DNA of 64,000 nt from a virus. Location: positions 96,001 through 160,000 of the IMG/VR virus record IMGVR_UViG_3300022602_000031; one strand, given 5' to 3'. Made by a program: the position numbers and the translations under genes. Below are positions 42,561-61,573 of this stretch, in pieces; within the stretch, counting starts at the first letter, position 1; the number at the start of each line of letters is the position of its first letter. The notes under the pieces were generated by a model. That model saw nothing but the letters and a program-made list of their open reading frames with translations, had not been told where the DNA came from and did not search any database.

Positions 42561-42646
42561 GGAGGTGTAGGAAAATTGGTAACCCCAGTGGACTGTAAAT
42601 CCGCCGCCTTATGGCACTACTTGTTCGACTCAAGTCACCTCCACCA
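42561..42646 (+). tRNA. tRNA-Tyr(GTA)
   Basis: GGAGGTG/CACCTCC, GTGGA-CTGTAAA-TCCGC, long variable arm, CCA. Confidence 0.95.
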
Positions 42647-44317: not shown

Positions 44318-44393
<76 letters not shown>

Positions 44394-44398
44394 GAATT

Positions 44399-44474
44399 GG
44401 GGGTGTAGCTCAGCTGGGAGAGCAGTAGCTTTGCAAGCTAAAGGTCGTCGGTTCGATCCCGACCATCTCCACCA
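44399..44474 (+). tRNA. tRNA-Ala(TGC)
   Basis: Loop TTTGCAA, G3:U70, CCA. Confidence 0.93.
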
Positions 44475-44480
44475 AAACTT

Positions 44481-44554
44481 GGCCCTTTAGTTTAATGGCA
44501 GAACAGGAGTCTCCAAAACTCTTGGTGGAGGTTCGATTCCTTCAGGGGTCGCCA
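44481..44554 (+). tRNA. tRNA-Trp(CCA)
   Basis: GGAGT-CTCCAAA-ACTCT, G73, CCA. Confidence 0.93.
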
Positions 44555-44560
44555 AACAAT

Positions 44561-44634
44561 GCGGGTGTCGTAAAATGGTATTACCTTAGCCTTCCAAGCT
44601 AAAGTCAGGGGTTCGATTCCCCTCACCCGCTCCA
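44561..44634 (+). tRNA. tRNA-Gly(TCC) copy 1
   Basis: TTAGC-CTTCCAA-GCTAA, U73, CCA. Confidence 0.95.
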
Positions 44635-44636
44635 GG

Positions 44637-44665
44637 TTGACACAAAAGTCTCAAAATAGTATACT
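44637..44665 (+). promoter_or_regulatory. sigma70 promoter internal to the tRNA array
   Basis: TTGACA(44637-42), 17 bp, TATACT(44660-65); tRNA-Asp starts at 44674. Confidence 0.8.
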
Positions 44666-44673
44666 ACATTATT

Positions 44674-44750
44674 GGAGAAGTAGCTCAGTTGGTTAGAGTG
44701 CCTGCCTGTCACGCAGGAAGTCGCGGGTTCGAGTCCCGTCTTTTCCGCCA
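44674..44750 (+). tRNA. tRNA-Asp(GTC)
   Basis: CCTGC-CTGTCAC-GCAGG, G73, CCA. Confidence 0.95.
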
Positions 44751-44756
44751 AGTTTC

Positions 44757-44832
44757 GCTCGGTTCGTCTATCGGTCTAGGACACCGCCCTTTCACGGCGG
44801 GAAGAGGGGTTCGATTCCCCTACCGAGTACCA
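44757..44832 (+). tRNA. tRNA-Glu(TTC)
   Basis: CCGCC-CTTTCAC-GGCGG, CCA. Confidence 0.95.
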
Positions 44833-44840
44833 AAATTTAT

Positions 44841-44915
44841 TCCCCGTTAGCTCAGAGGTAGAGCAGTAGACTGTTAATCTATTGGTCCCTGGTTCGATCC
44901 CAGGATGGGGAGCCA
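44841..44915 (+). tRNA. tRNA-Asn(GTT)
   Basis: GTAGA-CTGTTAA-TCTAT, G73, CCA. Confidence 0.95.
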
Positions 44916-44935
44916 AACAAAGAAAGGAGAAAGCC

Positions 44936-45367
44936 ATGACAGTTTTTAAGAATTTGATAGGAAAACGCATTAATGGCATTCTCCTAGGTAACGATAATTG
45001 GACTGTAGTGTTCCGCACTACAGAAGGCAATTACTTTCGTTACGACACTGGTAATGATTGTTGTAACACAGTATGGATTAACCATATCACAGGAGTTGAT
45101 GTAGTAGGCAAAGGCAACAGCTTTGATCTATTACGTGGAGCACTGGTAATAGGTGGTGAAGACAAAGAGTGGACCGAGAATCGCCCTGGTGAAGATGGCT
45201 GGGAAGTCATACAAGATGGCTTTTATACCTTACACACTGACCGCGGTTACATAGACATTGAAGTGCGTAACAGCCACAATGGATACTATGGTGGTACATT
45301 TAACGAAACAGACGAAGTAGACCTACAGGACATCGAAGATCTACAAGAAATAACAAACGATTTTTAA
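44936..45367 (+). CDS. Hypothetical protein within the tRNA array
   Basis: Start MTVFKNLIG after SD AAGAAAGGAG; motifs DCCNTVW and NSHNGYYGG. Confidence 0.7.
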   Translation: MTVFKNLIGKRINGILLGNDNWTVVFRTTEGNYFRYDTGNDCCNTVWINHITGVDVVGKGNSFDLLRGALVIGGEDKEWTENRPGEDGWEVIQDGFYTLHTDRGYIDIEVRNSHNGYYGGTFNETDEVDLQDIEDLQEITNDF

Positions 45368-45381
45368 GAAAGGAGCAAGGT

Positions 45382-45624
45382 ATGGATCGGTACACACCAA
45401 TGATTGCCAAAGCAGATCTGGTACACGGCGAATACTATCGCGGCCGATGTCGTAATGCCACTATTGCTCGTTGGAATGCCGAGACACAACGTTTTGTTCA
45501 TTGGCGTACCAAGTTTAAATTTGAATACACTGAAGAAATTTGTCATCCAGATGACGAGCAACATTTTGATGTGTTTGTAGTAGAAACTTTATGCAAGCCA
45601 GAAAAAGAAATACCATTTGATTAA
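45382..45624 (+). CDS. Small hypothetical protein
   Basis: 80 aa; SD AAGAAAGGAG. Confidence 0.7.
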   Translation: MDRYTPMIAKADLVHGEYYRGRCRNATIARWNAETQRFVHWRTKFKFEYTEEICHPDDEQHFDVFVVETLCKPEKEIPFD

Positions 45625-45641
45625 CAAGAAAGGAGGCACGT

Positions 45642-46247
45642 ATGCCAGCAGTATTTTTAGTAAGCGATACGCACTTTGGTCACGCAGGTGTATGTCGCTT
45701 CACACGTAACGATGGTGTTACAAAACTTCGTCCGTGGGATGATCCTGCGGAAATGGATGAAGCAATGGTTAAAGCGTGGAACGAACGTGTTCGTCCAAAT
45801 GACAAAGTTTACCATCTTGGTGACGTTGTCATTAACCGTCGGGCTATGAGCACCCTTGCTCGGCTTAACGGAGATAAAGTTCTTATCCGCGGTAACCACG
45901 ACATCTTCCGTGATGATGAGTACAGACAGTACTTCCGTGAACTTCGTGCCTACCACGTTATGAACGGACTTATCTTGTCCCACATTCCTCTACACGAAGC
46001 AAGTCTTGGTAGGTTTGGTACGAATATTCACGGACACCTTCACGCTAACAGAGTTATGAAAGCAAGAGGAGTTGATGCTCGTACCGGAGAGACATTATAC
46101 AGTGATGAAGTTGATACAAGATATCACTGTGTCTGTGTTGAACAAACTCCAGACTTCGCACCGATTCTCTTTGAAGATGTATTAAAGAGGATTACTGAAG
46201 AGGGCGGTATTGTTGGCTTCCGTAATGGAAACGGTCCCACAATGTAA
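45642..46247 (+). CDS. Calcineurin-like metallophosphoesterase
   Basis: SDTHFGH, LGDV, GNHD, LSHIP, HGHLH; SD AAGAAAGGAGG. Confidence 0.9.
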   Translation: MPAVFLVSDTHFGHAGVCRFTRNDGVTKLRPWDDPAEMDEAMVKAWNERVRPNDKVYHLGDVVINRRAMSTLARLNGDKVLIRGNHDIFRDDEYRQYFRELRAYHVMNGLILSHIPLHEASLGRFGTNIHGHLHANRVMKARGVDARTGETLYSDEVDTRYHCVCVEQTPDFAPILFEDVLKRITEEGGIVGFRNGNGPTM

Positions 46248-46251
46248 TAAG

Positions 46252-46329
46252 GCAACGGTGGCAGAGCGGCCCAATGCAACGGATTGCAAATCCGTAAGAC
46301 CGGGGGTTCAAATCCCTCCCGTTGCTCCA
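46252..46329 (+). tRNA. tRNA-Cys(GCA)
   Basis: GCAACGG/CCGTTGC, ACGGA-TTGCAAA-TCCGT, U73, CCA. Confidence 0.93.
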
Positions 46330-46334
46330 AATAT

Positions 46335-46419
46335 GCGACTGTGGTGAAATAGGTAGACACAAGAGACTTAAAATCTCTCGACGCAAGTCGTGCCAGTTCG
46401 ATTCTGGCCAGTCGCACCA
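46335..46419 (+). tRNA. tRNA-Leu(TAA)
   Basis: AGAGA-CTTAAAA-TCTCT, long variable arm, CCA. Confidence 0.95.
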
Positions 46420-46423
46420 ATTG

Positions 46424-46498
46424 GGAAATATAGCACAGCGGTAGTGCATCGCCTTCATACGGCGCAGGTCGGTAGTTCGAATCTACCTATTTCCACCA
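46424..46498 (+). tRNA. tRNA-CAT (elongator Met-like)
   Basis: GGAAATA/TATTTCC, CGCC-TTCATAC-GGCG, CCA. Confidence 0.85.
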
Positions 46499-46503
46499 AG
46501 TTA

Positions 46504-46578
46504 GCCTGTTTAGCTCAGTGGTAGAGCATTGTGTTGATAACGCAAGGGTCCGTGGATCGTTCCCACGAACAGGCACCA
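46504..46578 (+). tRNA. tRNA-Ile(GAT) with atypical T-loop
   Basis: TTGTG-TTGATAA-CGCAA; T-loop ATCGTTC; CCA. Confidence 0.85.
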
Positions 46579-46579
46579 T

Positions 46580-46653
46580 GCGGGAGTCGTAAAATGGTAT
46601 TACCTTAGCCTTCCAAGCTAAAGTCGAGGGTTCGATTCCCTTCTCCCGCTCCA
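46580..46653 (+). tRNA. tRNA-Gly(TCC) copy 2
   Basis: Near-identical to 44561-44634; CCA. Confidence 0.95.
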
Positions 46654-46659
46654 AGATAT

Positions 46660-46733
46660 ACCTCGTTAGTTTAATGGTAGAACGCCATCCTTACACGGTG
46701 GCTGCGGTGGTTCGATTCCATCACGAGGTACCA
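46660..46733 (+). tRNA. tRNA-Val(TAC)
   Basis: ACCTCGT/ACGAGGT, CCATC-CTTACAC-GGTGG, CCA. Confidence 0.93.
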
Positions 46734-46736
46734 TTT

Positions 46737-46813
46737 CCGCCTTTAGCTCAACTGGATAGAGTTCTGGTCTTCGAAATCAGCGGTTGTAGGTTCGACTCCT
46801 ACAGGGCGGGCCA
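46737..46813 (+). tRNA. tRNA-Arg(TCG)
   Basis: CTGGT-CTTCGAA-ATCAG, CCA. Confidence 0.92.
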
Positions 46814-46819
46814 AACAAT

Positions 46820-46896
46820 GGTGACGTTAGTGTTAGCGGTCAGCACCACGGATTGTGATTCCGTTAGCATCGGTTCGAATCCGATACGTTACCCCA
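46820..46896 (+). tRNA. tRNA-His(GTG) with encoded G-1
   Basis: G-1:C73, ACGGA-TTGTGAT-TCCGT, CCA. Confidence 0.93.
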
Positions 46897-46898
46897 AT

Positions 46899-46975
46899 AC
46901 CCCTGTAGACAAACTGGTAAAGTCACCGCTTTAAGAGGGCGAGATTTGTAGGTTCGAATCCTACCAGGGGCACCA
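46899..46975 (+). tRNA. Atypical tRNA with AAG anticodon (Leu), short variable loop
   Basis: CCGCT-TTAAGAG-GGCGA, A1/C72 mismatch, A73, normal T-arm, CCA. Confidence 0.7.
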
Positions 46976-46980
46976 GTTAT

Positions 46981-47070
46981 GGAAGTGTGGCAGAGTCCGG
47001 TTTATTGCACCTGTCTTGAAAACAGACGACTAGAAATGGTCCGTGAGTTCGAATCTCACCGCTTCCGCCA
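46981..47070 (+). tRNA. tRNA-Ser(TGA)
   Basis: CTGT-CTTGAAA-ACAG, long variable arm, G73, CCA. Confidence 0.95.
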
Positions 47071-47083
47071 TATAAATATCACT

Positions 47084-47668
47084 ATGAATATCAATAAAAA
47101 TGAGTGGTGGGCAACACCAGTCTGGGAAATCGATTCGGGGTTTGATGAATATTTTAACCTAGCATTGGCCGCAGAGCTAGCAGACATCAAACTTGAAAAA
47201 GGTTATGATAGATATGATATATGGGATTACAAAACTCCTAGATTATTAGAACTCAAGGAGTTTATGTTTGACGCACTAGATCAAACAGTACCCGAATACT
47301 TTGGAGAATACTATCCGTATAATCCTTGTTTTATAAACGGGTGGGCTAACATACAACACCCAGGCGCAGATCTGCCCTTACACGATCATGGTGGTACTGT
47401 ATTAGTATCAACTTACTATGTAACCTGCGAAGAAAATTCTGGGGATTTATTAGTAGTAGATCCCAGAATGGGTGCCAATTGGGAATGGATTGCTGACAAC
47501 GGATTCCAAGGAGTCAAATATCGAAGAATAACTCCCAAAGCTGGAAAATTCATTTTATTTCCGGGCTATGTTATGCATATGGTAGAAACAAACCGTAGCA
47601 ACAGTACTCGTATCAGTATTGCTACAAACATACATAATGGTAGAATTGATAAGATACACACTAGGTAG
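47084..47668 (+). CDS. 2OG-Fe(II) oxygenase (TIGR02466-like)
   Basis: WANIQHPG...LHDHG...STYYV...GDL...FPGYVMHMV...RISIATN. True start after TATAAATA 47071-78. Confidence 0.8.
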   Translation: MNINKNEWWATPVWEIDSGFDEYFNLALAAELADIKLEKGYDRYDIWDYKTPRLLELKEFMFDALDQTVPEYFGEYYPYNPCFINGWANIQHPGADLPLHDHGGTVLVSTYYVTCEENSGDLLVVDPRMGANWEWIADNGFQGVKYRRITPKAGKFILFPGYVMHMVETNRSNSTRISIATNIHNGRIDKIHTR

Positions 47669-47677
47669 ATATTCTAG

Positions 47678-47685
47678 TATAAATA
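47678..47685 (+). promoter_or_regulatory. T4 late-promoter consensus upstream of the Cys-rich peptide/rSAM operon
   Basis: Exact TATAAATA, 21 nt before ATG 47707. Confidence 0.6.
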
Positions 47686-47706
47686 GTGTATTATAAGAGA
47701 TAATTT

Positions 47707-48138
47707 ATGACACTACCAAGTTCAGGACAGATATCATTTGGCGACATTGACAACGAAATTGGCGCGGCTAACCAATCGTTGAGTATGAGCTGGCTTGATA
47801 CTGTTACAAAAACTTCCGTTGGTGGTAGTGTTGTTGCTTTAAATGATTTAAATGATCTATACGGATTGGCCTACTATCAAAATAACGTGTGGAACGCAAA
47901 TTGTAATAATGATAATGCTTCCAGTCCTCCAAATTGTAACTGTGGCGATCATAATTGTAGTAATTGCGTAAATTGTAATGCTATTAATTGTGCCAATGGT
48001 GATAGCCAACCATATCTACAACCAAATTGTAACTGCTATCAAACCAATGGTTTAAATTGTACATTTAATTGTACTACTAATAGCACCACTGTTAATTGTA
48101 ATTGTAACTGTACTTTCTGTGCCTGCGCTTGCTGGTAA
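47707..48138 (+). CDS. Cys/Asn-rich RiPP-like precursor or modified virion protein
   Basis: 17 Cys in the C-terminal 78 aa, 14 of them in Asn-Cys dipeptides; ends CNCNCTFCACACW; directly upstream of a SPASM rSAM gene. Confidence 0.7.
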   Translation: MTLPSSGQISFGDIDNEIGAANQSLSMSWLDTVTKTSVGGSVVALNDLNDLYGLAYYQNNVWNANCNNDNASSPPNCNCGDHNCSNCVNCNAINCANGDSQPYLQPNCNCYQTNGLNCTFNCTTNSTTVNCNCNCTFCACACW

Positions 48139-48153
48139 AAATCTAAGGGTTCT

Positions 48154-49602
48154 ATGAAATTTGAAATATATGCGGAACGTAACGCTAAAGATACTGCTGT
48201 CTTTTATTACGACAATCAAACAAATGTATTAACTAATCAACAAGGCGAAGAATTCAAATTTCCTGAAATGCCTACGTTTGCTGAACAGCCAACCAAGCCT
48301 TTTAGCAAAGAAGATCCTTTGCGTAAAAGCCGAGATGTTAATATGATTAAAATACAACTTGGTTTAAGTTGTAATTACAGTTGCGATTACTGTAGTCAAA
48401 AGTTTGTCGAACGTCCTCCTGAAACTAGTAAGAAAGATATTGACGCCTTTATGGCCAAGTTGGATGTGCTCAACATCACAGAAGAACGTGGATTACGTGT
48501 AGAGTTTTGGGGCGGTGAGCCGTTTGTATATTGGAAAACTCTTAAACCTCTAGCCGAAGCATTTGCTGAAAGATACAGTCATTGGAAAAAGCGTCCACAG
48601 TTTAGTGTAGTTACCAATGGCAGTTTGCTTACACGTGAAATCTGTAGCTGGTTATACTATATGGGATTTGGTGTAGGTATCAGCCACGATGGTCCTGGAC
48701 AGGCAGTACGTGGTCCGGATCCTTTTGAAGATCCAGAACGTAAAAAAGTCATATTAGAATTTTACAAAATCATGGCGCCGCAGAATCGCATTAGTTTTAA
48801 TGCTATGATGAATCGTAACAATACTAGCCGTCGCGCAATTAAAGAATATTTTGTAGAGCTCACTGGAGATCCTAATGTTAAGATCGGCGAAGGTGGATTC
48901 ATTGATGCGTATGATCAAGACGGTGCTAACAGTAGTTTAAATACCTTAGACGAACATTTTGCCTATCGTCGACAAGCATTTAATGATTTGTATACCACAG
49001 GTAAGAATTTACATTTTGATACGGTTTATACTAAACTAGATGCTTTTATTAGTAGCTTACTAGCACATCGTCCAGCCGAACTAGTTGGACAAAAATGCGG
49101 TATGGAAGAACCTGGCACAGTTGCATTAGACTTAAAAGGTAATATTGTTACCTGTCAGAATGTCAGCGTAATGGAAACCAGCAAGAACGGCGAAGCTCAT
49201 TTGGGTGGTAACTTAGACGACTACGACAACGTAGCACTCAAAGGAGTTACACATTGGAAATCTCGTACAAATAAAGTAAATTGTGCTGACTGCCCTGTTC
49301 TTCATTTGTGTAAGGGTAGTTGTATGTACCTAGATGGTGAGTTTTGGGATATCACCTGTAACAATGCCTACTCTGATAATATTCCTTTGTTTGCTATGGT
49401 TCTGAATGTAGTTACCAATGGATATATTCCTGTTACTATCAAAGCCGAAGGCTTACCATTGGAGCGACAAGATATCTGGGGTACAGTATACAAACACGAA
49501 GAAACTACAAAGAAAAAAATTATCCCAATTAAAGTAATATCAGAAAAGATAGGTACACTGGATGATATCGAAGTGTACGGTAAATCAAGGGTTGAACTAT
49601 GA
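48154..49602 (+). CDS. Radical SAM/SPASM peptide-maturase-like enzyme
   Basis: CNYSCDYC; FWGGEP; SPASM CG...GNIVTC and CADCPVLHLCKGSC (CX2CX5CX3C); possible N-terminal RRE-like segment. Confidence 0.88.
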   Translation: MKFEIYAERNAKDTAVFYYDNQTNVLTNQQGEEFKFPEMPTFAEQPTKPFSKEDPLRKSRDVNMIKIQLGLSCNYSCDYCSQKFVERPPETSKKDIDAFMAKLDVLNITEERGLRVEFWGGEPFVYWKTLKPLAEAFAERYSHWKKRPQFSVVTNGSLLTREICSWLYYMGFGVGISHDGPGQAVRGPDPFEDPERKKVILEFYKIMAPQNRISFNAMMNRNNTSRRAIKEYFVELTGDPNVKIGEGGFIDAYDQDGANSSLNTLDEHFAYRRQAFNDLYTTGKNLHFDTVYTKLDAFISSLLAHRPAELVGQKCGMEEPGTVALDLKGNIVTCQNVSVMETSKNGEAHLGGNLDDYDNVALKGVTHWKSRTNKVNCADCPVLHLCKGSCMYLDGEFWDITCNNAYSDNIPLFAMVLNVVTNGYIPVTIKAEGLPLERQDIWGTVYKHEETTKKKIIPIKVISEKIGTLDDIEVYGKSRVEL

Positions 49603-49910
49603 CAAACATTAATACACCAGAAATACAGGCACTAGTTGATTACTTAAAATCTCATGTTGCTATTATAACAGACATTGATGTAGCGGCAGTAACTGATCCA
49701 GAATGGCTAGCCCACGCAAATTGTGATCGAGCTATTACTTTAAACGTCCATATGACATTCCAAAGCCCAACACAACCTGGAAGTATTTTCTTTGGAGTCC
49801 CGGCCGCATTGTACGATGATCCTGCTATGTATCCGTTAGTTTTACAAAACTTATATAACTTAATGAATGCCAAGCCTGGCACTATGAACTACGAAGATTT
49901 ACGTAACTAA
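49599..49910 (+). CDS. Hypothetical protein in the rSAM operon
   Basis: 103 aa; ATGA overlap with the rSAM gene. Confidence 0.6.
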   Translation: MTNINTPEIQALVDYLKSHVAIITDIDVAAVTDPEWLAHANCDRAITLNVHMTFQSPTQPGSIFFGVPAALYDDPAMYPLVLQNLYNLMNAKPGTMNYEDLRN

Positions 49911-49912
49911 CA

Positions 49913-50461
49913 ATGAACCTACAACCTTTATTTGCGACACCGCTATGGTCTACTACCTATGACGATGCCGATGAACTCAATCAAAAATTATTAATCGAAG
50001 GTGAATCATATGATTTTATGCAAGATTATTTTGATTTGCCCGGCGAAGGCATAGCCGAACTTAAAGAACGTATTACCAATGAACTAACTAGTATGGTCAA
50101 TGAATTAGCATGGCCTATTAGTAGTTTAACTTTTAGCGGTCGGCAAAATCCCATAGCCCCGGGCAACAATGACACACCACATCATCATCCAGATCACGAA
50201 TTAGTCGGTGTGTACTATGTAAAAGTACCTTCAGTCAGTGGAGACATACTACTACACGATCCGCGTGGTAGTGTTCCTAAGTTTTGGGAAGATCCAAACG
50301 CAGTAACAGAGTCAGAGTACCGTTCAGCAAGACCCTATCATCGCATAGAACCTGTACCAGGAATGTTATTATTTTTTCCTGGATATCTAATACACAGCGT
50401 AGAATTTAATCGTAGCAATGATCTACGTGTCAGTATAATTCTTAGCATAAACATAGACTAA
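49913..50461 (+). CDS. 2OG-Fe(II) oxygenase (TIGR02466-like)
   Basis: PLFATP...PHHHP...GVYYV...GDI...FPGYLIHSV...RVSI. Confidence 0.8.
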   Translation: MNLQPLFATPLWSTTYDDADELNQKLLIEGESYDFMQDYFDLPGEGIAELKERITNELTSMVNELAWPISSLTFSGRQNPIAPGNNDTPHHHPDHELVGVYYVKVPSVSGDILLHDPRGSVPKFWEDPNAVTESEYRSARPYHRIEPVPGMLLFFPGYLIHSVEFNRSNDLRVSIILSINID

Positions 50462-50462
50462 A

Positions 50463-51647
50463 ATGAAATCGATCACAGTAGTGGGTGGCGGTACCGCAGG
50501 GTGGCTTACCGCACTATACTCTCTACAGTTATTCCCCAATAGCAAAGTAACGGTTATCGCCAGTAGCGAAATTGGAGTACTAGGTGCTGGCGAAGGAACT
50601 ACTCCGGCATTTAACGAGTTTGTAGAAAATCTAGGCATCGATGTCAATGACATTATTAAAAAAGCCGCTGGTACAGTTAAAAGCGGTATTAGATTTACCA
50701 ACTGGAATGGTCCGGATACTGGTTACTATCATCCGTTTTGGGAAGGCCGTACAGCTCTACACTTTGATGCTAATTTATTAGCTAAATTTTTACAGGACAT
50801 TGCCATTGGTAGAGGCATACAACTAATTGATGATGTAATCGTCGGTGTTGATACCCGCAGTCTAACTCTACAGTCTGGTCAGATACACTCATATGATTTT
50901 ATATTTGACTGTTCGGGCTTCCGTCGTTTAATTATAGGGCAACACTATAACAGTACCTGGAATTCTTATAGTCGGTCATTGCCAGCCAAACGTGCTATGC
51001 CTTTCTTTATCCCACACAATGGCAACATACCTGAATATACTGAAAGTATAGCAATGAAGTATGGATGGGTATGGCGAATACCTGTACAAGGACGCTATGG
51101 TTGTGGTTATGTATTTGACAGCGATTACATCACCGACGCACAGGCCCTGGCAGAAATACAAGAAAGTTTTGGTCCAGTAACTAGTCCACGTACATTTAAC
51201 TTTGCGGCTGGAAGTTACAGCCAAACTTGGATCAACAATGCAGTTGCCATTGGCCTAAGTGCTGGATTTACTGAACCATTAGAAGCTACTAGTATATGGA
51301 CTGCTATTACTTCGCTACAACATTTTAAAGATAAAATAGATGGCATAGACAGACCTGAGATTAAAGAACTCTACAATCGTGATATAGAAAAACTAAATCA
51401 AGATTTCATGACATTTATACACTTTCATTATTTGTCACAGCGCAACGACAGTGAGTTTTGGCAAGAATTTGCTACAAAGAATACTACACCAGACTTTATA
51501 CAACGTATGGGGCGCCGCGCTCCTACACAACAAGAGTTAGATTATCTTTATCAGGTTGAAAATCCTGGCGAACTATACAAAATTAAAACATACCCAGTCA
51601 ACAGTTGGTTAGCAGTTGGCAACGGCATAGGATACTTTAATGGCTAA
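50463..51647 (+). CDS. Flavin-dependent tryptophan-halogenase-like enzyme
   Basis: VVGGGTAGW, GAGEGT, VKSGIRFTNW, FDCSGF, GWVWRIP, EPLEAT. Confidence 0.88.
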   Translation: MKSITVVGGGTAGWLTALYSLQLFPNSKVTVIASSEIGVLGAGEGTTPAFNEFVENLGIDVNDIIKKAAGTVKSGIRFTNWNGPDTGYYHPFWEGRTALHFDANLLAKFLQDIAIGRGIQLIDDVIVGVDTRSLTLQSGQIHSYDFIFDCSGFRRLIIGQHYNSTWNSYSRSLPAKRAMPFFIPHNGNIPEYTESIAMKYGWVWRIPVQGRYGCGYVFDSDYITDAQALAEIQESFGPVTSPRTFNFAAGSYSQTWINNAVAIGLSAGFTEPLEATSIWTAITSLQHFKDKIDGIDRPEIKELYNRDIEKLNQDFMTFIHFHYLSQRNDSEFWQEFATKNTTPDFIQRMGRRAPTQQELDYLYQVENPGELYKIKTYPVNSWLAVGNGIGYFNG

Positions 51648-53115
51648 CTGTATTATATTAGCCGGAGGAACCTGGGTACCTGACTACACTAGTAAAATAC
51701 AACGTGGGCTCGGTCCATATCGTATTGCTACAGCACTAGAAACAGCTGGATATACTGTACAGGTTATAGATTTTGTTATACATTTAACCACAGAAGAAAT
51801 TATACAGGCCATCAGTAAGCATCTAGGTCCCGATACACTATGGGTAGGATTTAGTAGCACATTCTTTTGGAATACCAATCAGGTCAATCCCGAGCAGTCT
51901 TGGTTAGATAGAATGTACTGGACAGACTACAGTAATGTAAAGCCTATTATTGATTATATAAAACAAACAAGCTCAGCTCGGTTAGTCTATGGAGGCGCCA
52001 AAACACCTTTTCTAGTAGGCACAGACAAAAATATTGATCATTATGTGGTTGGCTATGCTGATACAGCCATAGTTGAACTTACTCAATCTATAGAACGCAA
52101 GCAACCAGCAGAACTGGTAATAGACAGCACCGTATACCCAGCACCTAAAATGGACAGTTTAACTACTTGCTGGCATACAATATTACCTGGCGAAGGGTTG
52201 CCAATTGAACTAGCACGTGGTTGTATTTTTAAATGTAAATTTTGTAGTTATCCTTTGCTAGGAAAAAAGAAAGGAACCTATCTAATAGACACCAACTTGG
52301 TTAGAGATCAATTATTGGCCAACTACGAGCAACACGGAACAACTCGTTATTACATTACCGATGATACTTTTAACGATGACAATGACAAAATAGAAGCATT
52401 GCATCGTGTGTTTACTGATTTACCTTTTAAAATTCAATTTAGTTGTTATCTAAGATTAGACCTACTACATAAACATCCGCATCAGGCTGACCTGTTATCG
52501 GATATGGGACTGATAGGTACATACTTTGGTATTGAAAGTCTACTGCCAGAGAGTGCTAGAGCAATAGGCAAAGGCCTACACCCTAACAAAGTTAAGGATA
52601 GACTGTATTGGCTACAAGAACGTTGGCATCAACAGGTTAATGTTGCCGCAGGATTTATACTAGGACTACCATACGATACAACCGAGTACTTTGATAGTTT
52701 AATCAACTGGTGTATGGAAGCTGATAATCCATTACAACATATATCATTTTATGCGTTGATGTTTTATAACAAACAGATTAACGATGATGCCAGAGAAGAT
52801 AGGCTACGTCCTTATTATTCTGAGTTTACCTTACACCCAGAAATATACGGATATGAATTTGACAAAGACAGCATAATGAGCTGGAGCTTACCCAGTCAAC
52901 ATTTGAGTTATGATAAGTGTTTGTCTATTGCGGACTACTACAACGGCCTGGTTGCGGATCGCAACAAAATTAGCGATTTCCAGCTGATATCGCACTTAAA
53001 TATAGGTATACCGTTGGCAGATATGTACGAATTAACACAGCAAGAGATTAACCGCCGTTACGACATTAACCAACTAAATCAACAGCGTTTAATTGACTAT
53101 AAACAACTATTATGA
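51640..53115 (+). CDS. B12-binding-domain radical SAM enzyme (class B methyltransferase-like)
   Basis: N-terminal GPYRIATALE...WVGFSST...VYGG; ARGCIFKCKFC; DDTFN; FGIES. Confidence 0.8.
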   Translation: MANCIILAGGTWVPDYTSKIQRGLGPYRIATALETAGYTVQVIDFVIHLTTEEIIQAISKHLGPDTLWVGFSSTFFWNTNQVNPEQSWLDRMYWTDYSNVKPIIDYIKQTSSARLVYGGAKTPFLVGTDKNIDHYVVGYADTAIVELTQSIERKQPAELVIDSTVYPAPKMDSLTTCWHTILPGEGLPIELARGCIFKCKFCSYPLLGKKKGTYLIDTNLVRDQLLANYEQHGTTRYYITDDTFNDDNDKIEALHRVFTDLPFKIQFSCYLRLDLLHKHPHQADLLSDMGLIGTYFGIESLLPESARAIGKGLHPNKVKDRLYWLQERWHQQVNVAAGFILGLPYDTTEYFDSLINWCMEADNPLQHISFYALMFYNKQINDDAREDRLRPYYSEFTLHPEIYGYEFDKDSIMSWSLPSQHLSYDKCLSIADYYNGLVADRNKISDFQLISHLNIGIPLADMYELTQQEINRRYDINQLNQQRLIDYKQLL

Positions 53116-53762
53116 TTGTTGAAGAAATTTTTGGATCGCCAGTAATTACAGTACAATGCCCGGACAGCATTTACCATAATCCCGAGCTGACCAAAAGTGT
53201 AGAGCAGATATTGAATTTGCCCACTGTAAAAAATCGTTGGAGATCAGACACCGGGGACAGTCACAAAGGATCGGGGCTGACTACTGTAGGGCAACCATAC
53301 ATTGACCTGGCGTACTTGCCGGGTGCCAAACAGCTAACTGATTGGATTTCTGAACAGCTACTATTAGTTAAGCCCATAATGGCTCCCGGTAAAACAGGTT
53401 CCCACATACACTACAAACGCAGTTGGACTAATAGACTATATCGTGGTAGTCAAGGTATGTGCCACAATCATACCAGAGCTGATACTTATATACAAGAACG
53501 TGGTGATTATAATGAAGAAAATTTTTGTCCCGACGCTGTAGCAATTTTTTACGTTGATGTACCGGAGGGTAGCAGTCAGTTGGTATTGATCAACAACGGC
53601 ATTCCAGACTTACCGCATACAGCATTTACAGAAAAACATTTTATGACACACACCGCTGGACAATTAGTTATACACAGTCCACAGGTATGGCACGCGGTTA
53701 CTGAACATCAAAGTGATAGTCCTCGTAATGTCTACGTGTTTGATGCTGATTATGTTAACTAA
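53112..53762 (+). CDS. 2OG-Fe(II) oxygenase-like protein
   Basis: SWTN...CHNH...AIFYV...SPQVWHAV...R.VYVFD. Confidence 0.65.
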   Translation: MIVEEIFGSPVITVQCPDSIYHNPELTKSVEQILNLPTVKNRWRSDTGDSHKGSGLTTVGQPYIDLAYLPGAKQLTDWISEQLLLVKPIMAPGKTGSHIHYKRSWTNRLYRGSQGMCHNHTRADTYIQERGDYNEENFCPDAVAIFYVDVPEGSSQLVLINNGIPDLPHTAFTEKHFMTHTAGQLVIHSPQVWHAVTEHQSDSPRNVYVFDADYVN

Positions 53763-55023
53763 TTATTTTAATTCCGCCGTTGTTGCGTAAACTGTCAACA
53801 AATAGTAAGTTAATGTCGCAGTAATTATCCTGTATAAAGTTAGTAACGGCGTCTTTGTCTTGTGTAAGTGCGTGTAACATAAAATCACCACCTACAATTT
53901 CTATTGCGTAGTTTACAATGCCGGTAGAGTTTTCAAACGCCTGTTTAAAATCTCGTACACTGATTAAATTACCATTGTAGCGTATTAAGTTATATCGGCG
54001 TCCAAAGAACTGTAATTGATTGTTGGTATAACTTCCTCGATCGCTAGTAGTATACACTATGCCATCTGGTCTAGTAATGACTATAGAGTCTTGATTGTTT
54101 GTATGACAATGGTAGGCTACATTAACCCAGTCAAATGGTTTTGCCAGGTCCTCTGCGGTATGTATGTCCTTAATAGCCAATGGTGGCAAACATTCAGTTA
54201 ATCCATAGGTATCATACAAATGATCATAGCTACAAGACTGTTGTATATAGTCTAACAGAGTTGATTTAAATACATCTCCGCCGGTAGTGATCATTCTAAA
54301 ATGTCGTTGCGGTAACGGAAATAAATCTTTCATAGTATAGAAATACTGTATGTGTGTCGCTTGAACTGATTCTTCTGCCCAGGTATTAGTTCCAGCAATA
54401 CTTAAGGTTGTTGCACTAAACACCGCAGGTAAAATAGCAGTAGTGTGTACACCTTGATGACTCATTCCGTGTAAAAATACACAGTAATCTGTAGATTCAA
54501 AGAAATATTCTTGTGCTCGCTGTATACTAATTGCTTCTACATAAGCACTTAGACTTTCCAATTTGGGTCTATCGGTTGTGCCTGATGTATAAGCTGATAC
54601 TGTTTGTTCTTGTGTAAAATTTATAACAAGATCATCGCACATTGGCCAACGACCACTGGCCCAGGCGTGTTCCCAACTGTCGGTTCGGATATAATATTTT
54701 GGAATATTAACAAAATGTTGATCGTCTCTAGTGTCGCCAGCAACAAATATAGTGCTTAGATTTAGTTCTCGAAAGGTATTGCCATTGAGTTGATTGCCTA
54801 AGTTGCCTAAATGATGATAATCACGCCCACTACGGTATAAGGCCAGCAATAAAGCGATACAGCTAAAACTAAGACCAGAGTAGGCGATGCCAATTGGAGC
54901 AGGATCTTCTATTAAACTTATTTGATGCCGCCAGTAGCTAACAGCCTGCGCTAAATCCTGGCGAGTGTAACTGACACGATTGTACTTAATAATTAAGTTA
55001 GGGCTGACGTTGAGACTGATCAT
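53755..55023 (-). CDS. ANL-superfamily adenylate-forming enzyme (AMP-binding)
   Basis: YTSGTTDRPK, TGGD, YGLTE, TSDRG, FGRR. The start at 55023 or 55044 is uncertain. Confidence 0.75.
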   Translation of the reverse strand: MISLNVSPNLIIKYNRVSYTRQDLAQAVSYWRHQISLIEDPAPIGIAYSGLSFSCIALLLALYRSGRDYHHLGNLGNQLNGNTFRELNLSTIFVAGDTRDDQHFVNIPKYYIRTDSWEHAWASGRWPMCDDLVINFTQEQTVSAYTSGTTDRPKLESLSAYVEAISIQRAQEYFFESTDYCVFLHGMSHQGVHTTAILPAVFSATTLSIAGTNTWAEESVQATHIQYFYTMKDLFPLPQRHFRMITTGGDVFKSTLLDYIQQSCSYDHLYDTYGLTECLPPLAIKDIHTAEDLAKPFDWVNVAYHCHTNNQDSIVITRPDGIVYTTSDRGSYTNNQLQFFGRRYNLIRYNGNLISVRDFKQAFENSTGIVNYAIEIVGGDFMLHALTQDKDAVTNFIQDNYCDINLLFVDSLRNNGGIKIIS

Positions 55024-55207
55024 ACCGTTCCTGAGATTGGTCAAGCAATTCTTTTACTTTACGTTCGCTATAAGTGGCAAATACGCAAGGTAGTACAGCG
55101 TGTATGATACTGGCAATGCCGGCAATAATCAAAACGGTGCCAGCATACACAGCAAAACAAAAATGTCCTGTATAGGTATAGTTGCGATCTTTAAGGTGTT
55201 TGAACAT
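54998..55207 (-). CDS. Small membrane protein
   Basis: HLKDRNYTYTGHFCFA, a hydrophobic segment, then HAVLP. Confidence 0.55.
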   Translation of the reverse strand: MFKHLKDRNYTYTGHFCFAVYAGTVLIIAGIASIIHAVLPCVFATYSERKVKELLDQSQERYDQSQRQP

Positions 55208-56520
55208 TAATAAATTACCAACTTTCTGTCAATACAATGTATGATTTTAGTCTGGTCTTGTCGGGCCCGATTCCATACTGCGCCAGCATCCAAAGGGCTG
55301 TTAACTTCTATGTCGCTGTCTCCAAGGTAATAAAACGTACTTAAAAACGTTTTCATATCATATGGCTGTCTGTTGCGACTAGAAATATACTTTTGGTCTA
55401 AATTGTTTAGTACATAATCAATGCCGGCTTGCCAGGTAGTGTATAATCTAGTATCTTTAAAATTTGTAAAAAACCAGGTGTCCATTTCACATTGAAAATT
55501 TAATAAGGGTTTAGCTACTTGGAACGTATTGATATCGTAGTCAGGATAAATTATGCCACGTACTAACTGTTCATACATTTGTCGATTGCGTATATTGTCA
55601 TTGGGCCAACGTACAGCGTTTTGAAATTTGTTGTTGGCCGGCTGACTAAACCATTGTTTGACTACGTGTGCCTGTTTACATACTAGCTCAGGGAAATCTG
55701 GAGTCCAGTAAAACAACTCATTAGTGATATTGGTGTAGTCGCCTACATCATTGTTGTTATGACAGGCCAGTTGATCAATAAAGTACAACCAAAATTTGCC
55801 GTCTTTTAAACAAATTTTAGGTTTGTCTACTCCGTATATAACACCCACTTTTGTATAACGTTCAGCCTGTTCTCTATGATCGGCTAATGCTATTGTAGCG
55901 TGTTTGTATCCGTGGCCTGGCTGTAGATAATTTCTAGTTTTAAATATCCAAGATTCGTCCCGGCTGTCTGAGTCGGCTATCATGGCATCTGTGTAGTCAT
56001 ACACGGTAATTTTAATGTTTGGGTAATGAGTACTAATCCAGTTTAGTAAAGGGCGTGCCGCATATTCCCACTCGCTGAGTGTGTTTTCGCTGCCAGTGTT
56101 CCAAGGATCTGCGCTAACATCCTTTTCGCCACGCTTAGGATAACGAAATACTACTTCGTCAATTGGAATATTGTTTAACACAAAACTGTATAGTACTGTA
56201 GTACTGTCGGAACCGCCGCTGAGTTCAAGACGCAGGTAATCATATGTATCACGTAGTTGTTGTGCTCGCATACGATATAGTTCACGTAATTCAACTTTAG
56301 GCTCTTCGTGCCAGTTAAATTTTAAAAATGCTTCGTCGTTGAATCGCCATCTAACTGGATCGTTATTTAACTGGTGTGTATTAGCAGGTCCGCAACTGGC
56401 CGCAATTAAGGCCTGAACTTTATTGTAGTAAACGTGTTTGCCGAGTTGATAATATCCGAGTTTTTGGTTTGGCTCAAATTTAATACCACCTGCAGAGGTG
56501 TGTTCAATTTTAATTGACAT
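55207..56520 (-). CDS. PP-loop (N-type ATP pyrophosphatase) family protein, paralog 2
   Basis: LELSGGSDS; homologous to 40701-41849; minus-strand TAAATA at 56557-62. Confidence 0.6.
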   Translation of the reverse strand: MSIKIEHTSAGGIKFEPNQKLGYYQLGKHVYYNKVQALIAASCGPANTHQLNNDPVRWRFNDEAFLKFNWHEEPKVELRELYRMRAQQLRDTYDYLRLELSGGSDSTTVLYSFVLNNIPIDEVVFRYPKRGEKDVSADPWNTGSENTLSEWEYAARPLLNWISTHYPNIKITVYDYTDAMIADSDSRDESWIFKTRNYLQPGHGYKHATIALADHREQAERYTKVGVIYGVDKPKICLKDGKFWLYFIDQLACHNNNDVGDYTNITNELFYWTPDFPELVCKQAHVVKQWFSQPANNKFQNAVRWPNDNIRNRQMYEQLVRGIIYPDYDINTFQVAKPLLNFQCEMDTWFFTNFKDTRLYTTWQAGIDYVLNNLDQKYISSRNRQPYDMKTFLSTFYYLGDSDIEVNSPLDAGAVWNRARQDQTKIIHCIDRKLVIY

Positions 56521-56863: not shown

Positions 56864-56937
56864 CGCGGAGTATAGAAACGGTATCTTACCAGTCTCATAA
56901 GCTGGTGTTGGGGGTTCGATTCCCTCCTCCGCAACCA
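56864..56937 (+). tRNA. Initiator-like tRNA-fMet(CAT)
   Basis: C1/A72 mismatch, A11-U24, CCAGT-CTCATAA-GCTGG, CCA. Confidence 0.85.
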
Positions 56938-56941
56938 AACA

Positions 56942-58036
56942 ATGCTATATCTAGTTACCCACCCACTTAAACGTCCAGCAGAAAAACAATTAGATTTACT
57001 ATTAGGTACGCTGGACTTATTTGGCGTTGACTATCAGCAGGTGCCTATAGATCAAATACCCGCAGGAAGCACAGTTATTACTGATTGTTTTATAATGGAA
57101 ACCCCGTCGGGTGATCCCGGGCACGACATAGCACAGCAGATTATCGATGCCTGTACTGGTAGAGATTGTAAACTAGTGTTTTACTACCCTAGCGAAAGTT
57201 ATGCTACACTATCAGCTAGTTTTACGCCTACCGCACATTTATGTCTAGAGCGTAGTATTGAAGCACATTTGATCAAATGCGGTGATTGGGACATTATAGG
57301 ATTTACTAATCATAATTTGCCTGAATTTTTTGCCTGGGTTATCAGTAGTGATTTTAATCTAGCCAGGTTAGCCTACACACAGCAGGCAATAGATCACAAT
57401 CCCAAGACACATCGTTTTTTGTTTTTAAACGGGGAACGTCGCCAAGACCGAGAATATTTTTTTAATCTCTACAAAGATGCTGGCCTACTAGAGTCTAGTA
57501 TATGGAGTTATAGATCAGGTAAAAGCAGTGAAGGCTTTGGCCCCAATGAAGATTGGCCGGATCCTTTTGTACACCCTGACTTCCGTTTCTATGCTTATTA
57601 TCCTAGTCATTTTTATCGTACTAAGATTAGCATCATCAGCGAAACTACACAGATGGAGTTCTTTCCTACAGAAAAAACTTATAAGAGCCTAATGCTTGGA
57701 CACCCATTTGTATTATACGGTGGTAGAGGCAGTTTAGGTAAGCTACAACAACTGGGATTTCGCACATTCGGCCCGTGGATTGATGAAAGCTATGATTTAG
57801 CTGACTATCCCTTGGAACGTGCTGATCGTACTATTCCATTACTTGATCAAATTCCCGAAGATATCATTGAGCTAACACAAGAAGTACGTGATCACAATCG
57901 ACGACAATTTCACGTTGTAGCCCAAAGCATTTATCCTAAATTATTGAATATATTGCAAGATATTGATCGTAGTGTTATAATCAATGAAAGTTTTACAGTT
58001 AATACTAGCATATTAAACAAGTATTTTTTGAATTAA
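56942..58036 (+). CDS. Glycosyltransferase-like protein (paralog 3)
   Basis: FLFLNGERR, IISETT, TEKTYKSLMLGHPF, GFRTFGPWIDESYD. Confidence 0.5.
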   Translation: MLYLVTHPLKRPAEKQLDLLLGTLDLFGVDYQQVPIDQIPAGSTVITDCFIMETPSGDPGHDIAQQIIDACTGRDCKLVFYYPSESYATLSASFTPTAHLCLERSIEAHLIKCGDWDIIGFTNHNLPEFFAWVISSDFNLARLAYTQQAIDHNPKTHRFLFLNGERRQDREYFFNLYKDAGLLESSIWSYRSGKSSEGFGPNEDWPDPFVHPDFRFYAYYPSHFYRTKISIISETTQMEFFPTEKTYKSLMLGHPFVLYGGRGSLGKLQQLGFRTFGPWIDESYDLADYPLERADRTIPLLDQIPEDIIELTQEVRDHNRRQFHVVAQSIYPKLLNILQDIDRSVIINESFTVNTSILNKYFLN

Positions 58037-58039
58037 AAC

Positions 58040-58133
58040 GGAGAGCTGGCCGAGTGGTCGAAGGCACTTCCCTGCTAAGGAAGCATACGGGCTTAAACCT
58101 GTATCGAGGGTTCGAATCCCTCGCTCTCCGCCA
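58040..58133 (+). tRNA. tRNA-Ser(GCT)
   Basis: CTTCC-CTGCTAA-GGAAG, long variable arm, G73, CCA. Confidence 0.95.
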
Positions 58134-58180
58134 AGTTTGTGATAAATAAATACAATAAACACAAATCCCAGGAGTTTTCC

Positions 58181-59146
58181 ATGAATCAAACAAAAACAAT
58201 ACGTTGGGTATTATACCACGAACCGATTGATCTTTTTATTCGCACAGCAGAAGCATTCAGCAAAGAAATCAATCGTTTAACTGATGGTCGCATCAACGTA
58301 GAAATTTACAGCACCAACGAATTTGCTGAAAAATTTAAAAAAGGTGTAAACGTAGAGCCAATGGTTTGGATGCAGGCTGGCGATTGCGAAATGAGCCAGG
58401 TTCAAATTGGCGAAATTGCTAACTGGCATAGCCCAGATTTTTGGGCATTAGAACTACCATTTTTATTCCGCGATCATGATCACGCTACTCGAGCACTAGA
58501 AGGCCCAATTGGGCAAAGTATGTTAAAGAATTTAGAAAATACCAGCCCAGCACGTGGATTGGCATTTACTTACTCAGGTGGATATCGTTGTCTAGCAGTC
58601 GACCGTGAAATTAATACAGCAGAAGGTCTTAAAGGACTAACAGTTATTACTCAAAAAAATCCAATTACAATCGAGACAGCTGAAGCATTTGGTCTAGTTC
58701 CGGTGCCGGTTAATGTTAAAGATCATCTTAACAAAGATAGAAATAAACACACAAACTTCAACGGTAATAACGCAGTTGAAACAACATTACCGCGCTACGA
58801 AGCAGAAGCAAAAACCGAAGCTCATCGTTACATAGCCGATACACGTCACAATATGTATTTGACAAGTATTATCATTGCTAAAGAATTTTGGAATGACTTA
58901 TCTGCTGAAGATCAAGAATTTATTCAACAGGCCGCACTACACAGCAGTCGTTTAGAGCGTCAATGGTCAGTGGCTGATGCTAATAAAATTTCTGACAGCA
59001 AAGAAGAACAAGATAAGTTGGGTGTTACATACAACAATTTTAGCAAAGAAGAAACTGCTAAATTAAAACAAGCAACAGCACATTTGTATGAAAAATACTC
59101 ACAATTTTTTACTCCAGATCTAGTAGATGGAATTATTAAATCCTAA
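58181..59146 (+). CDS. dctP: DctP-like protein without signal peptide, paralog 2
   Basis: MNQTKTIRWVLYHEP...ALELPFLFRDHDHA...GLAFTYSGGYR; TAAATA at 58143-48. Confidence 0.8.
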   Translation: MNQTKTIRWVLYHEPIDLFIRTAEAFSKEINRLTDGRINVEIYSTNEFAEKFKKGVNVEPMVWMQAGDCEMSQVQIGEIANWHSPDFWALELPFLFRDHDHATRALEGPIGQSMLKNLENTSPARGLAFTYSGGYRCLAVDREINTAEGLKGLTVITQKNPITIETAEAFGLVPVPVNVKDHLNKDRNKHTNFNGNNAVETTLPRYEAEAKTEAHRYIADTRHNMYLTSIIIAKEFWNDLSAEDQEFIQQAALHSSRLERQWSVADANKISDSKEEQDKLGVTYNNFSKEETAKLKQATAHLYEKYSQFFTPDLVDGIIKS

Positions 59147-59771
59147 TATCGTTTTTTCAAAATACACAGACAATAAATTAATTGATATAACAGCTCAGGA
59201 TTTGTTTAGTAATAGACGAATCCTGATTTGCTCTGTGGTCCGCCCTCGCGAAAATCTAGATCAAAAATATGCTGATTACATTCAAAGTTTGATTCCGTTT
59301 TATAAACAACACGGAGTCGATGATGTGTATCTTATTAATTCGTCGGCTGGTAAATTTGGCCTGGTTAGATTAGAAAAAAATCATCCACAGATTACCAGCC
59401 TGTACGATAATAATGCTGACTTTGTTCGAGCATTAGCTACACAGTTGAATAAAAAACCCACAGTTGACACTTTGTCCAAATACTGGAGTTATCAGGTTTT
59501 AGTTAATAATGGTAAAGTTGAGCAGTTTTACGAACAACCAACTGAAAATTATATCAAACATATTATTGATGCCGGATATAAAATTGATCTGGGCAACCAT
59601 AAGTTTTTTGCTCTAGAAGGAGATCGGGCATTACATCGCCCTTCGTTGCGGGTAGAAGAACAGCAGTTTGAGCACATAAACATAGAACAAAAACACCTAA
59701 TCACCGGAGCCATTATGTATTTTAATTTATGGCCAAATAACTTGTTGTATAACTATCTAAAGAGTGTATAA
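59127..59771 (+). CDS. Degenerate peroxiredoxin/redoxin-fold protein, paralog 2
   Basis: DLFSNRRILICSV...GVDDVYLINS...YDNNADFV...VNNGKVEQF. Confidence 0.55.
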   Translation: MELLNPNIVFSKYTDNKLIDITAQDLFSNRRILICSVVRPRENLDQKYADYIQSLIPFYKQHGVDDVYLINSSAGKFGLVRLEKNHPQITSLYDNNADFVRALATQLNKKPTVDTLSKYWSYQVLVNNGKVEQFYEQPTENYIKHIIDAGYKIDLGNHKFFALEGDRALHRPSLRVEEQQFEHINIEQKHLITGAIMYFNLWPNNLLYNYLKSV

Positions 59772-59782
59772 TTAACATTGTA

Positions 59783-60050: not shown

Positions 60051-60086
60051 CTTGATAAATAATAACATATACTTGGAGTTTCCCAA

Positions 60087-61566: not shown

Positions 61567-61573
61567 TTTTAAT

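Follow-up and report, generated by a model that had tools for sequence, protein, structure and literature searches.

An Asn-Cys-rich phage protein paired with a radical SAM/SPASM enzyme: a candidate fibre-associated substrate for enzymatic maturation

The window analyzed here, a 64,000-nucleotide (nt) stretch of a virus genome (positions 96,001 to 160,000 of IMG/VR record IMGVR_UViG_3300022602_000031), encodes a 143-amino-acid (aa) protein rich in Asn-Cys repeats, followed by a radical S-adenosylmethionine (SAM) enzyme with a SPASM domain and a series of candidate tailoring enzymes. In 88 of 89 loci, homologues of the small protein, the Asn-Cys family, are encoded next to a radical SAM/SPASM gene or no more than two genes away from one, and many of them are fused to, or encoded among, domains and genes typical of tail fibres. 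We consider it probable, with moderate confidence, that the Asn-Cys protein is a small fibre-associated protein of the virion matured by the adjacent SPASM enzyme and the tailoring set, rather than a leader-core peptide. The N-terminal module (residues 1-60) would probably dock the protein onto the tail fibre, and the Asn/Cys-rich C-terminal domain would be the substrate of the SPASM enzyme. That enzyme most likely forms thioether links from Cys sulfur to carbon, probably onto Asn; the product would be a tip stapled by covalent bonds and proof against reduction, whose synthesis is possible in the cytoplasm.

An Asn-Cys protein family and its partner enzyme

The core of the window cluster consists of the following features.

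47678-47685, + strand: TATAAATA box, resembling the T4 late promoter, 21 nt ahead of the ATG of the Asn-Cys protein gene
47707-48138, + strand: Asn-Cys-rich protein, 143 aa, presumed substrate; residues 1-60 form a folded module and residues 66-143 are rich in Cys and Asn
48154-49602, + strand: radical SAM/SPASM enzyme, 482 aa, with a TIGR04085 match, a CxxxCxxC motif and ten invariant Cys
49599-49910, + strand: putative helper protein, 103 aa, with a predicted alpha-beta3-alpha fold

The Asn-Cys protein contains 17 Cys, every one within the final 78 residues and 14 of them preceded by Asn. It ends in CACACW, with Trp143 as the last residue and without an S74 or Hint self-cleaving domain, and its gene stops 15 nt ahead of the radical SAM/SPASM gene. 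A word-based search returned 120 homologues, and an exhaustive profile search of 1.84 billion representatives put the size of the family at 137 clusters (50% identity), of which 109 match at E <= 1e-10; the matches begin at residue 1 nearly throughout. The Cys pattern is kept in more than 100 homologues; the Cys positions, many Asn, and D99, L104, Q105 and Y120 are invariant or almost so. None of 96 family members matched a Pfam or PHROG family. A tblastn search with the protein against 50,697 phage records gave no match, for which low-complexity filtering is a possible cause, and a search with the Cys domain alone for longer fused forms also found none, the fused forms described below having come to light by other routes.

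Pairing with the enzyme is close to universal. Among 80 IMG/VR loci fetched with the Asn-Cys family alignment, 79 encode a homologue of the 482-aa enzyme (42-70% identity) within two genes, nearly always directly 5' or 3' of the Asn-Cys gene and in a few cases with one or two genes between. In the single unpaired locus, the contig stops 210 nt past the Asn-Cys gene. The pair is likewise present in all four ENA contigs and in all five contigs from bacterial assemblies, including Polynucleobacter and Paraburkholderia isolates. The association holds when the genes are in reversed order and when the small protein has diverged by 35-50%, as predicted for an enzyme and its substrate.

Two architectures recur. 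In the first, to which the window belongs, a Cys-rich protein of 125-167 aa is followed by the radical SAM gene, a helper of 106-246 aa, and a variable set of oxygenase, halogenase and B12-type radical SAM genes. In the second (42 loci), the radical SAM gene comes first and the Cys-rich domain is fused to a C-terminal domain of about 165 aa with a hydrophobic end, for which no Pfam or PHROGs family was found. The same ~165-aa domain ends a 616-aa protein of Synechococcus phage SynMITS9220M01 (gp028, L095:5669-7519), which is encoded right after a gene annotated 'fiber protein' and contains a Gly-rich stretch, an extended run of Pro and a run of Arg. The 103-aa protein of the window, encoded after the radical SAM gene, matches a hidden Markov model of 24 helper homologues (E = 9.8e-10) and is a single copy of a domain of about 100 aa that is doubled in the long helpers; it would serve as a conserved helper of the maturation. 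It belongs to no Pfam or PHROGs family, and its AlphaFold2 model (mean predicted local distance difference test score, pLDDT, 88.9) found no match among solved folds.

An earlier, sequence-only reading of the window had listed these genes and motifs, and all of its open reading frames (ORFs) are in place. Its description of a 143-aa ORF with 17 Cys in the last 78 residues, 14 as Asn-Cys, 15 nt ahead of a SPASM enzyme proved exact on recount. The SPASM motif that it called full is borne out by a TIGR04085 score of 34 bits (cut-off 27) and by seven Cys invariant in 19 homologues, and the K and WxWxIP motifs of the halogenase are intact as it had said. The co-occurrence of precursor and maturase, which it had proposed as a test, is what the 88 paired loci document.

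Links to tail fibres

The N-terminal part of the Asn-Cys protein is a folded module and not the leader of a peptide made by ribosomes and modified post-translationally (RiPP). Residues 1-60 are modelled by AlphaFold2, as a monomer, at pLDDT ~80-87, and their pattern MxLPxSGxIS..DI..E.G also heads proteins that lack the Cys domain, namely P0251 and a 174-aa protein of Ralstonia phage RSP15. The latter (L102:1048-1572, - strand) starts MGLPSSGAISMADIANEIG, and its gene directly follows that of a 459-aa S74 tail fibre. Foldseek with the model of the Asn-Cys protein found no match in the PDB, and a fold search of BFVD returned one uncharacterized phage protein (E = 1.2e-4) along with weak rows for gp38 adhesins. 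We did not adopt a kinship with gp38, given Foldseek E-values of 0.2-0.3 and an Atlas template modelling score of 0.50 on a poor model.

Fusions at the other end also connect the family with fibres. In about 15 homologues and in loci L006, L034 and L083, a Peptidase_S74 chaperone with the usual Ser-Asp cleavage site follows directly after the last Cys, and in L056, L062, P0175, P0224 and P0232 the last Cys is followed by a Hint domain that itself starts with Cys. S74 and Hint domains are self-cleaving modules typical of phage fibres, and cleavage by either would leave the same Cys-rich C-terminus as in the stand-alone form. Two relatives carry a Gly-rich, gp38-like insert between the N-terminal module and the Cys domain. 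The genomic contexts agree: S74 fibre or DUF4815 genes lie within 6 kb in at least 23 of 85 loci, and in many T4-like contigs the pair comes after genes for a baseplate wedge, gp8, a giant DUF4815 protein and an S74 fibre. Locus L004 displays the full order, from baseplate wedge through gp8, DUF4815 and S74 fibre to the Cys-rich gene and the radical SAM gene.

Other carriers share little with the window protein apart from the tail. The tail fibre gp028 of Achromobacter phage JWF carries the string NCNCDCNCNCS right before a Hint domain, with a 45% identical radical SAM enzyme encoded two genes on, and L097, a relative, has the same arrangement. In L098 and L099, three tandem fibre-like proteins of 92-109 aa, each ending in NCNC...NC, are encoded beside a SPASM-type enzyme; the trio also adjoins an S74 fibre gene and four genes resembling 2-oxoglutarate (2OG) oxygenases. 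The trio of L098 (positions 2587-3499; IMGVR_UViG_3300032561_000099) has a fibre-type N-terminus, GNGIVTFGDGT...FTNDLGNYG. What these neighbours of the enzyme have in common is therefore a fibre-type carrier whose mature C-terminus bears an (Asn-Cys)n tail.

These observations bear directly on the idea of a true RiPP, in which a leader of about 60 residues would guide cross-linking and tailoring of a Cys-rich core that is then cut from it and, during infection, set free as a bioactive peptide. The gene set is RiPP-like indeed (precursor, SPASM enzyme, oxygenases, halogenase and B12-type radical SAM enzyme), the best family matches of the enzyme are RiPP maturases, and the window cluster has no fibre genes beside it. 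However, neither the window cluster nor the conserved module contains a protease, transporter or immunity gene. No PqqD/RiPP recognition element (RRE) family was detected in the 482-aa enzyme by sequence search at E <= 0.01 (about 60 residues lie ahead of its radical SAM core), and the order of elements in the helper model is unlike that of an RRE. The supposed leader recurs as a module on Cys-free proteins, of which one has its gene right behind that of a tail fibre, and the S74 and Hint fusions, together with the positions inside fibre modules, point to a structural part. We therefore regard a released peptide as quite improbable. The sequence-only reading had spoken of a 'natural-product or protein-modification pathway': the second wording fits the evidence, and the first finds no support, given the missing protease and exporter, a 'leader' that is folded and shared with Cys-free proteins, and the fusions to fibre domains. 

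Taken more broadly, the distribution suggests, as a tentative proposal in which we place somewhat less trust, that phages of several lineages run a RiPP-style maturation on a receptor-binding part of the virion, with the (Asn-Cys)n tip stapled and, in one lineage, a terminal Trp halogenated.

Enzyme chemistry, tailoring and points of doubt

The radical SAM motif of the 482-aa enzyme, CNYSCDYC, lies at residue 73 (PF04055, 30.7 bits versus a cut-off of 29.5), and a SPASM block of the form C-x2-C-x5-C-x3-C lies at 377. Ten Cys (73, 77, 80, 315, 334, 377, 380, 386, 390 and 402) are invariant in 19 diverse homologues, including those of JWF and RSP15. Seven of these (C315, C334, C377, C380, C386, C390 and C402) are the SPASM Cys expected for two auxiliary [4Fe-4S] clusters. 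Among NCBIfam models, the best matches are to PapB (2e-21), QhpD (4e-20), the geopeptide maturase and CcpM, and CteB (5wgg) is the second-best PDB match by sequence. The enzyme thus resembles maturases of ranthipeptides and sactipeptides and is a member of no named family; homology scores fix its class as a SPASM peptide or protein maturase, and leave the reaction unfixed.

Our best guess for the reaction is the formation of thioether cross-links, because little is common to the substrates except Cys with Asn, Asp or Ala beside it, and because the CrpC/CrpA system (below) performs such chemistry on a whole protein. A radical SAM enzyme that joins Cys to the beta-carbon of Asn, NxxcB, is also known. 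The enzyme might instead modify the Asn-Cys protein by another chemistry, such as conversion of Cys to formylglycine, carbon-carbon cross-links or links between subunits. A model of anaerobic sulfatase maturases matches over almost the full length of the enzyme (3e-13), the JWF homologue is annotated accordingly, and all family scores are too far under their cut-offs to settle the type of reaction. Yet the substrates have in common just Asn/Asp/Ala-Cys repeats and lack the CxPxR motif of sulfatases, and the top models (PapB, QhpD, CcpM and geopeptide) describe maturases that make thioethers or act on Cys-rich peptides, so that we consider a non-thioether reaction unlikely.

The candidate tailoring genes of the window flank this core.

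47071-47078, + strand: TATAAATA box resembling the T4 late promoter, after a tRNA-Ser gene and before the first oxygenase gene (weak evidence)
47084-47668, + strand: 2OG-Fe(II) oxygenase-like protein (PF13759, 61 bits versus a cut-off of 27), HxH metal motif
49913-50461, + strand: 2OG-Fe(II) oxygenase-like protein (PF13759, 61 bits versus a cut-off of 27)
50463-51647, + strand: flavin-dependent halogenase (PF04820, E = 1e-90), 394 aa
51640-53115, + strand: radical SAM protein, class-B-like, motif CIFKCKFC, with a weakly matching B12-binding domain
53112-53762, + strand: third 2OG-Fe(II) oxygenase-like protein (Pfam 25.6 bits versus a cut-off of 27; phrog_81, 4e-13)

From the radical SAM/SPASM gene through the third oxygenase, the genes overlap or almost abut. 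For the upstream oxygenase, the ATG at 47084 is probably the true start, since the longer ORF overlaps the tRNA-Ser gene.

The halogenase scores 305 bits against PF04820 (cut-off 21) and has the motifs GGGTAG at 8, WVWRIP at 202 and EPLE at 271; the Lys of its TVKSGIRF segment aligns with the catalytic Lys of BrvH (6frl). At 394 aa, compared with 497-554 aa in solved Trp halogenases, it lacks their C-terminal part, and alignments to the solved enzymes stop near residue 430 of chains of about 510. The shortened C-terminus is compatible with a larger peptide or protein as substrate. In all 25 loci that combine a halogenase with a stand-alone Cys-rich protein, the window included, the Cys-rich protein ends in Trp, as C-x-C-x-W or a close variant, and the Trp is kept although the residues around it vary. 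In the 12 complete stand-alone loci that lack a halogenase, the last residue is always Gly, Cys or Ala (L085 and L088, whose contigs are cut within the radical SAM gene and which are of the halogenase-bearing type, were left out of this set). In the S74-fused protein of L006, a Trp lies two residues ahead of the cleavage site. Because the presence of the halogenase and the Trp end track each other, the halogenase probably acts on the C-terminal Trp of the Asn-Cys protein in the phage lineage of the window.

The same halogenase family is found in other settings. VirX1 of cyanophage Syn10 (6qgm) is a member (5e-45) and is about 100 residues longer than the window enzyme. The closest halogenase from an isolate, 41% identical, is encoded by Pelagibacter phage HTVC008M, in whose genome we found no radical SAM gene and no Asn-Cys family member; such enzymes must therefore have other targets too. 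In HTVC008M, the gene is inserted together with a 2OG oxygenase gene between the small and large terminase genes (63198-65157), and four further oxygenases lie close to this pair.

Operon membership suggests that the PF13759 oxygenases hydroxylate, and the B12-type radical SAM enzyme methylates, the Asn-Cys protein, each probably as part of the same maturation. Oxygenase, halogenase and B12-type radical SAM genes recur with the Asn-Cys/SPASM pair in a large sub-group of loci. Homologues of the 47084-47668 oxygenase lie just 5' of the Cys-rich gene in 16 loci. The HxH motif of the PF13759 proteins aligns with 3bvc; their nearest solved relatives are uncharacterized, and we know of no characterized member of PF13759/TIGR02466. 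The B12-type gene occurs in 21 other loci. Its product matches PF04055 at 46 bits, PF02310 weakly (26.3 bits versus a cut-off of 32.1) and its best NCBIfam model at 92 bits (cut-off 360), with no relative in the PDB; a link between its presence and the sequence of the Asn-Cys tail was sought and none was found. The sequence-only reading was right about the genes of this tailoring set, for which Asn hydroxylation and C-methylation, as it had suggested, are putative reactions; it had also drawn in the convergent genes downstream, an AMP-binding enzyme and a PP-loop protein, which are present in none of the other loci with the pair and thus probably lie outside the module.

Several observations weigh against maturation of a fibre-associated Asn-Cys protein, in whole or in part. 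The proposed chemistry is read from family resemblance only, with NCBIfam scores far under the cut-offs (PapB 76.7 bits versus 340, SCIFF maturase 41.7 versus 425), and the nearest solved structure by sequence, 8vpo (5e-12), comes from a study of a cyclopropyl synthase and not a thioether synthase, which counts in favor of the non-thioether alternative as well. Around the window cluster lie tRNA genes instead of fibre genes, and the 180-kb record, estimated to be ~50% complete, yielded no S74 domain. AlphaFold2 models the Cys-rich part at pLDDT < 50, so a fibre-like fold is not demonstrated. On the enzyme tree, 16 of the Trp/halogenase loci make up a strongly supported clade and 4 more a second group, so that the association of Trp with halogenase may go back to as few as one to three events. 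As a cue to timing, we count the TATAAATA box 21 nt 5' of the Asn-Cys protein gene in favor; across the window, however, the box is not enriched (6 copies versus 8.3 expected by chance, all six on the + strand). RSP15 encodes an enzyme of 46% identity, and no Cys repeat lies within 6 kb of it; C-x-C runs are also typical of metal-binding proteins. The RSP15 radical SAM/SPASM gene lies about 28 kb from that phage's 174-aa N-module protein, in another fibre cluster.

The RSP15 enzyme and the C-x-C runs would fit a case in which the Cys were only ligands of metal ions or Fe-S clusters, or formed disulfides after lysis, in a metallothionein-like fibre tip, with the enzyme acting elsewhere or the pairing having some other cause. 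The C-x-C runs look like those of metal-thiolate proteins, an unfolded prediction for the Cys domain is what a metal-dependent fold would give, and tail-tip proteins that bind iron or Fe-S are known (the iron sites of T4 gp37 and the Fe-S cluster of lambda gpL). Such a tip nonetheless leaves unexplained why 88 of 89 loci place a SPASM enzyme alongside, whichever gene comes first and despite 35-50% divergence of the small protein, and why unrelated carriers ending in (Asn-Cys)n are encoded beside the same enzyme clade. We accordingly hold this explanation to be unlikely, and favor enzymatic maturation of a fibre-associated protein.

Known systems and genomic surroundings

Among the closest known systems, by described features, is CrpC/CrpA of Methanococcus voltae, in which a SPASM enzyme is encoded beside a Cys-rich protein rather than a short peptide and installs ranthionine links (sulfur to a non-alpha carbon) on the 28.8-kDa protein (Dieter et al. 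2026, PMC13692751). CrpA has the motifs ACAGM, CAVD and CPLVL, and CrpC has a predicted RRE; the system is archaeal and cellular, and the paper makes no mention of phages (PMC13692751). Unlike CrpA, the presumed substrate in the window is a fibre-type Asn-Cys protein of a phage, accompanied by halogenase, oxygenase and B12-type tailoring genes.

In the QhpD/QhpC/QhpG system of quinohemoprotein amine dehydrogenase, a SPASM enzyme links Cys to carbons of Asp and Glu in the small subunit and a flavoprotein modifies its Trp. The window proteins match the QhpD model at 71.8 bits (cut-off 453) and the QhpG model at 4e-6 (25.9 bits versus a cut-off of 240). The flavoprotein of the window is, however, a clear PF04820 halogenase with a WxWxIP motif and not a QhpG monooxygenase, and dehydrogenase subunits are absent. 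Ranthipeptide and sactipeptide systems (PapB/freyrasin, CteB/SCIFF) similarly place a radical SAM/SPASM enzyme beside a Cys-repeat substrate, but their substrates are short leader-core peptides that are recognized through an RRE and exported; the window cluster yielded no RRE, protease or exporter, and its substrate family is linked to the architecture of tail fibres. Likeness to gp38 adhesins and S74-chaperoned fibres is architectural: the gene for a small protein comes right behind a fibre gene, the protein has an N-terminal docking module and a repeat-rich distal domain, and self-cleavage by S74 or Hint exposes a mature end. The Asn-Cys protein differs from gp38 (PF05268) in showing no significant sequence or fold match to it.

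Arrays of 2OG oxygenase and halogenase genes in cyanophages were described earlier, with small secondary metabolites proposed as their products and no description of a Cys-rich/radical SAM pair (Iyer et al. 2010, PMC2938197). A table in a review lists no natural product for VirX1. The natural substrates of VirX1 and the cyanophage arrays are unknown, and the window offers a candidate protein substrate in the form of a C-terminal Trp. Searches of the literature on phage radical SAM enzymes, thioethers, tail fibres and viral RiPPs turned up no account of phage fibre proteins being matured by a radical SAM enzyme; one cyanophage paper names a 'radical SAM maturase' as an antibiotic-synthesis gene, leaving its substrate unnamed. 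New here are the definition of the Asn-Cys family, the pairing statistics, four alternative C-terminal arrangements, the helper assignment, the link between terminal Trp and halogenase, and the exclusion of the AMP-binding and PP-loop genes.

Radical SAM thioether chemistry has so far been seen on small antimicrobial peptides and on three or four cellular proteins. If the proposed maturation is correct, viruses would use this chemistry to toughen or adjust their host-contacting part, and the Asn-Cys protein would be the first enzymatically cross-linked and halogenated structural protein of a virus. The phage halogenase/oxygenase arrays, unexplained since 2010, would thereby gain a first natural substrate, and compact cross-linked scaffolds and protein-acting halogenases could become engineering tools. 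Cultured relatives include Achromobacter phage JWF and the elements in Polynucleobacter sp. JS-Safj-400b-B2 and Paraburkholderia sp. BCC1886.

The source of the window is a large myovirus, as indicated by genes for a tail sheath (1,209 aa), a tube protein and a large terminase, along with 23 tRNA genes; no close relative of its genome was found in the phage collection compared. The tRNA genes occupy 38339-38515, 42561-42646, 44318-47070 and 56864-61647. Two dense tRNA arrays lie directly 5' of the cluster, and the final tRNA-Ser stops one base ahead of the first TATAAATA box. On the other side, the cluster is met by convergent genes.

53755-55044, - strand: AMP-binding enzyme, with a score just at the cut-off
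55207-56520, - strand: PP-loop protein, recognized by its SGGSDS motif and without a Pfam, NCBIfam or PHROG family

A 69-aa ORF among these convergent genes (53755-56520) is likewise absent from the other loci with the pair. Elsewhere in the window, 38505-41849 may hold a second modification cassette: it encodes a second, full-length PF04820 halogenase (534 aa) and a Methyltransf_24 protein (40135-40701), the latter followed by a 390-aa paralogue of the 55207-56520 PP-loop protein. Still further 5' of the second halogenase, at 34348-38332, lie genes of sugar-nucleotide and DNA-modification type, encoding a methyltransferase, a fusion of cytidylyltransferase and mannose-6-phosphate isomerase, and an N6/N4 DNA methylase.

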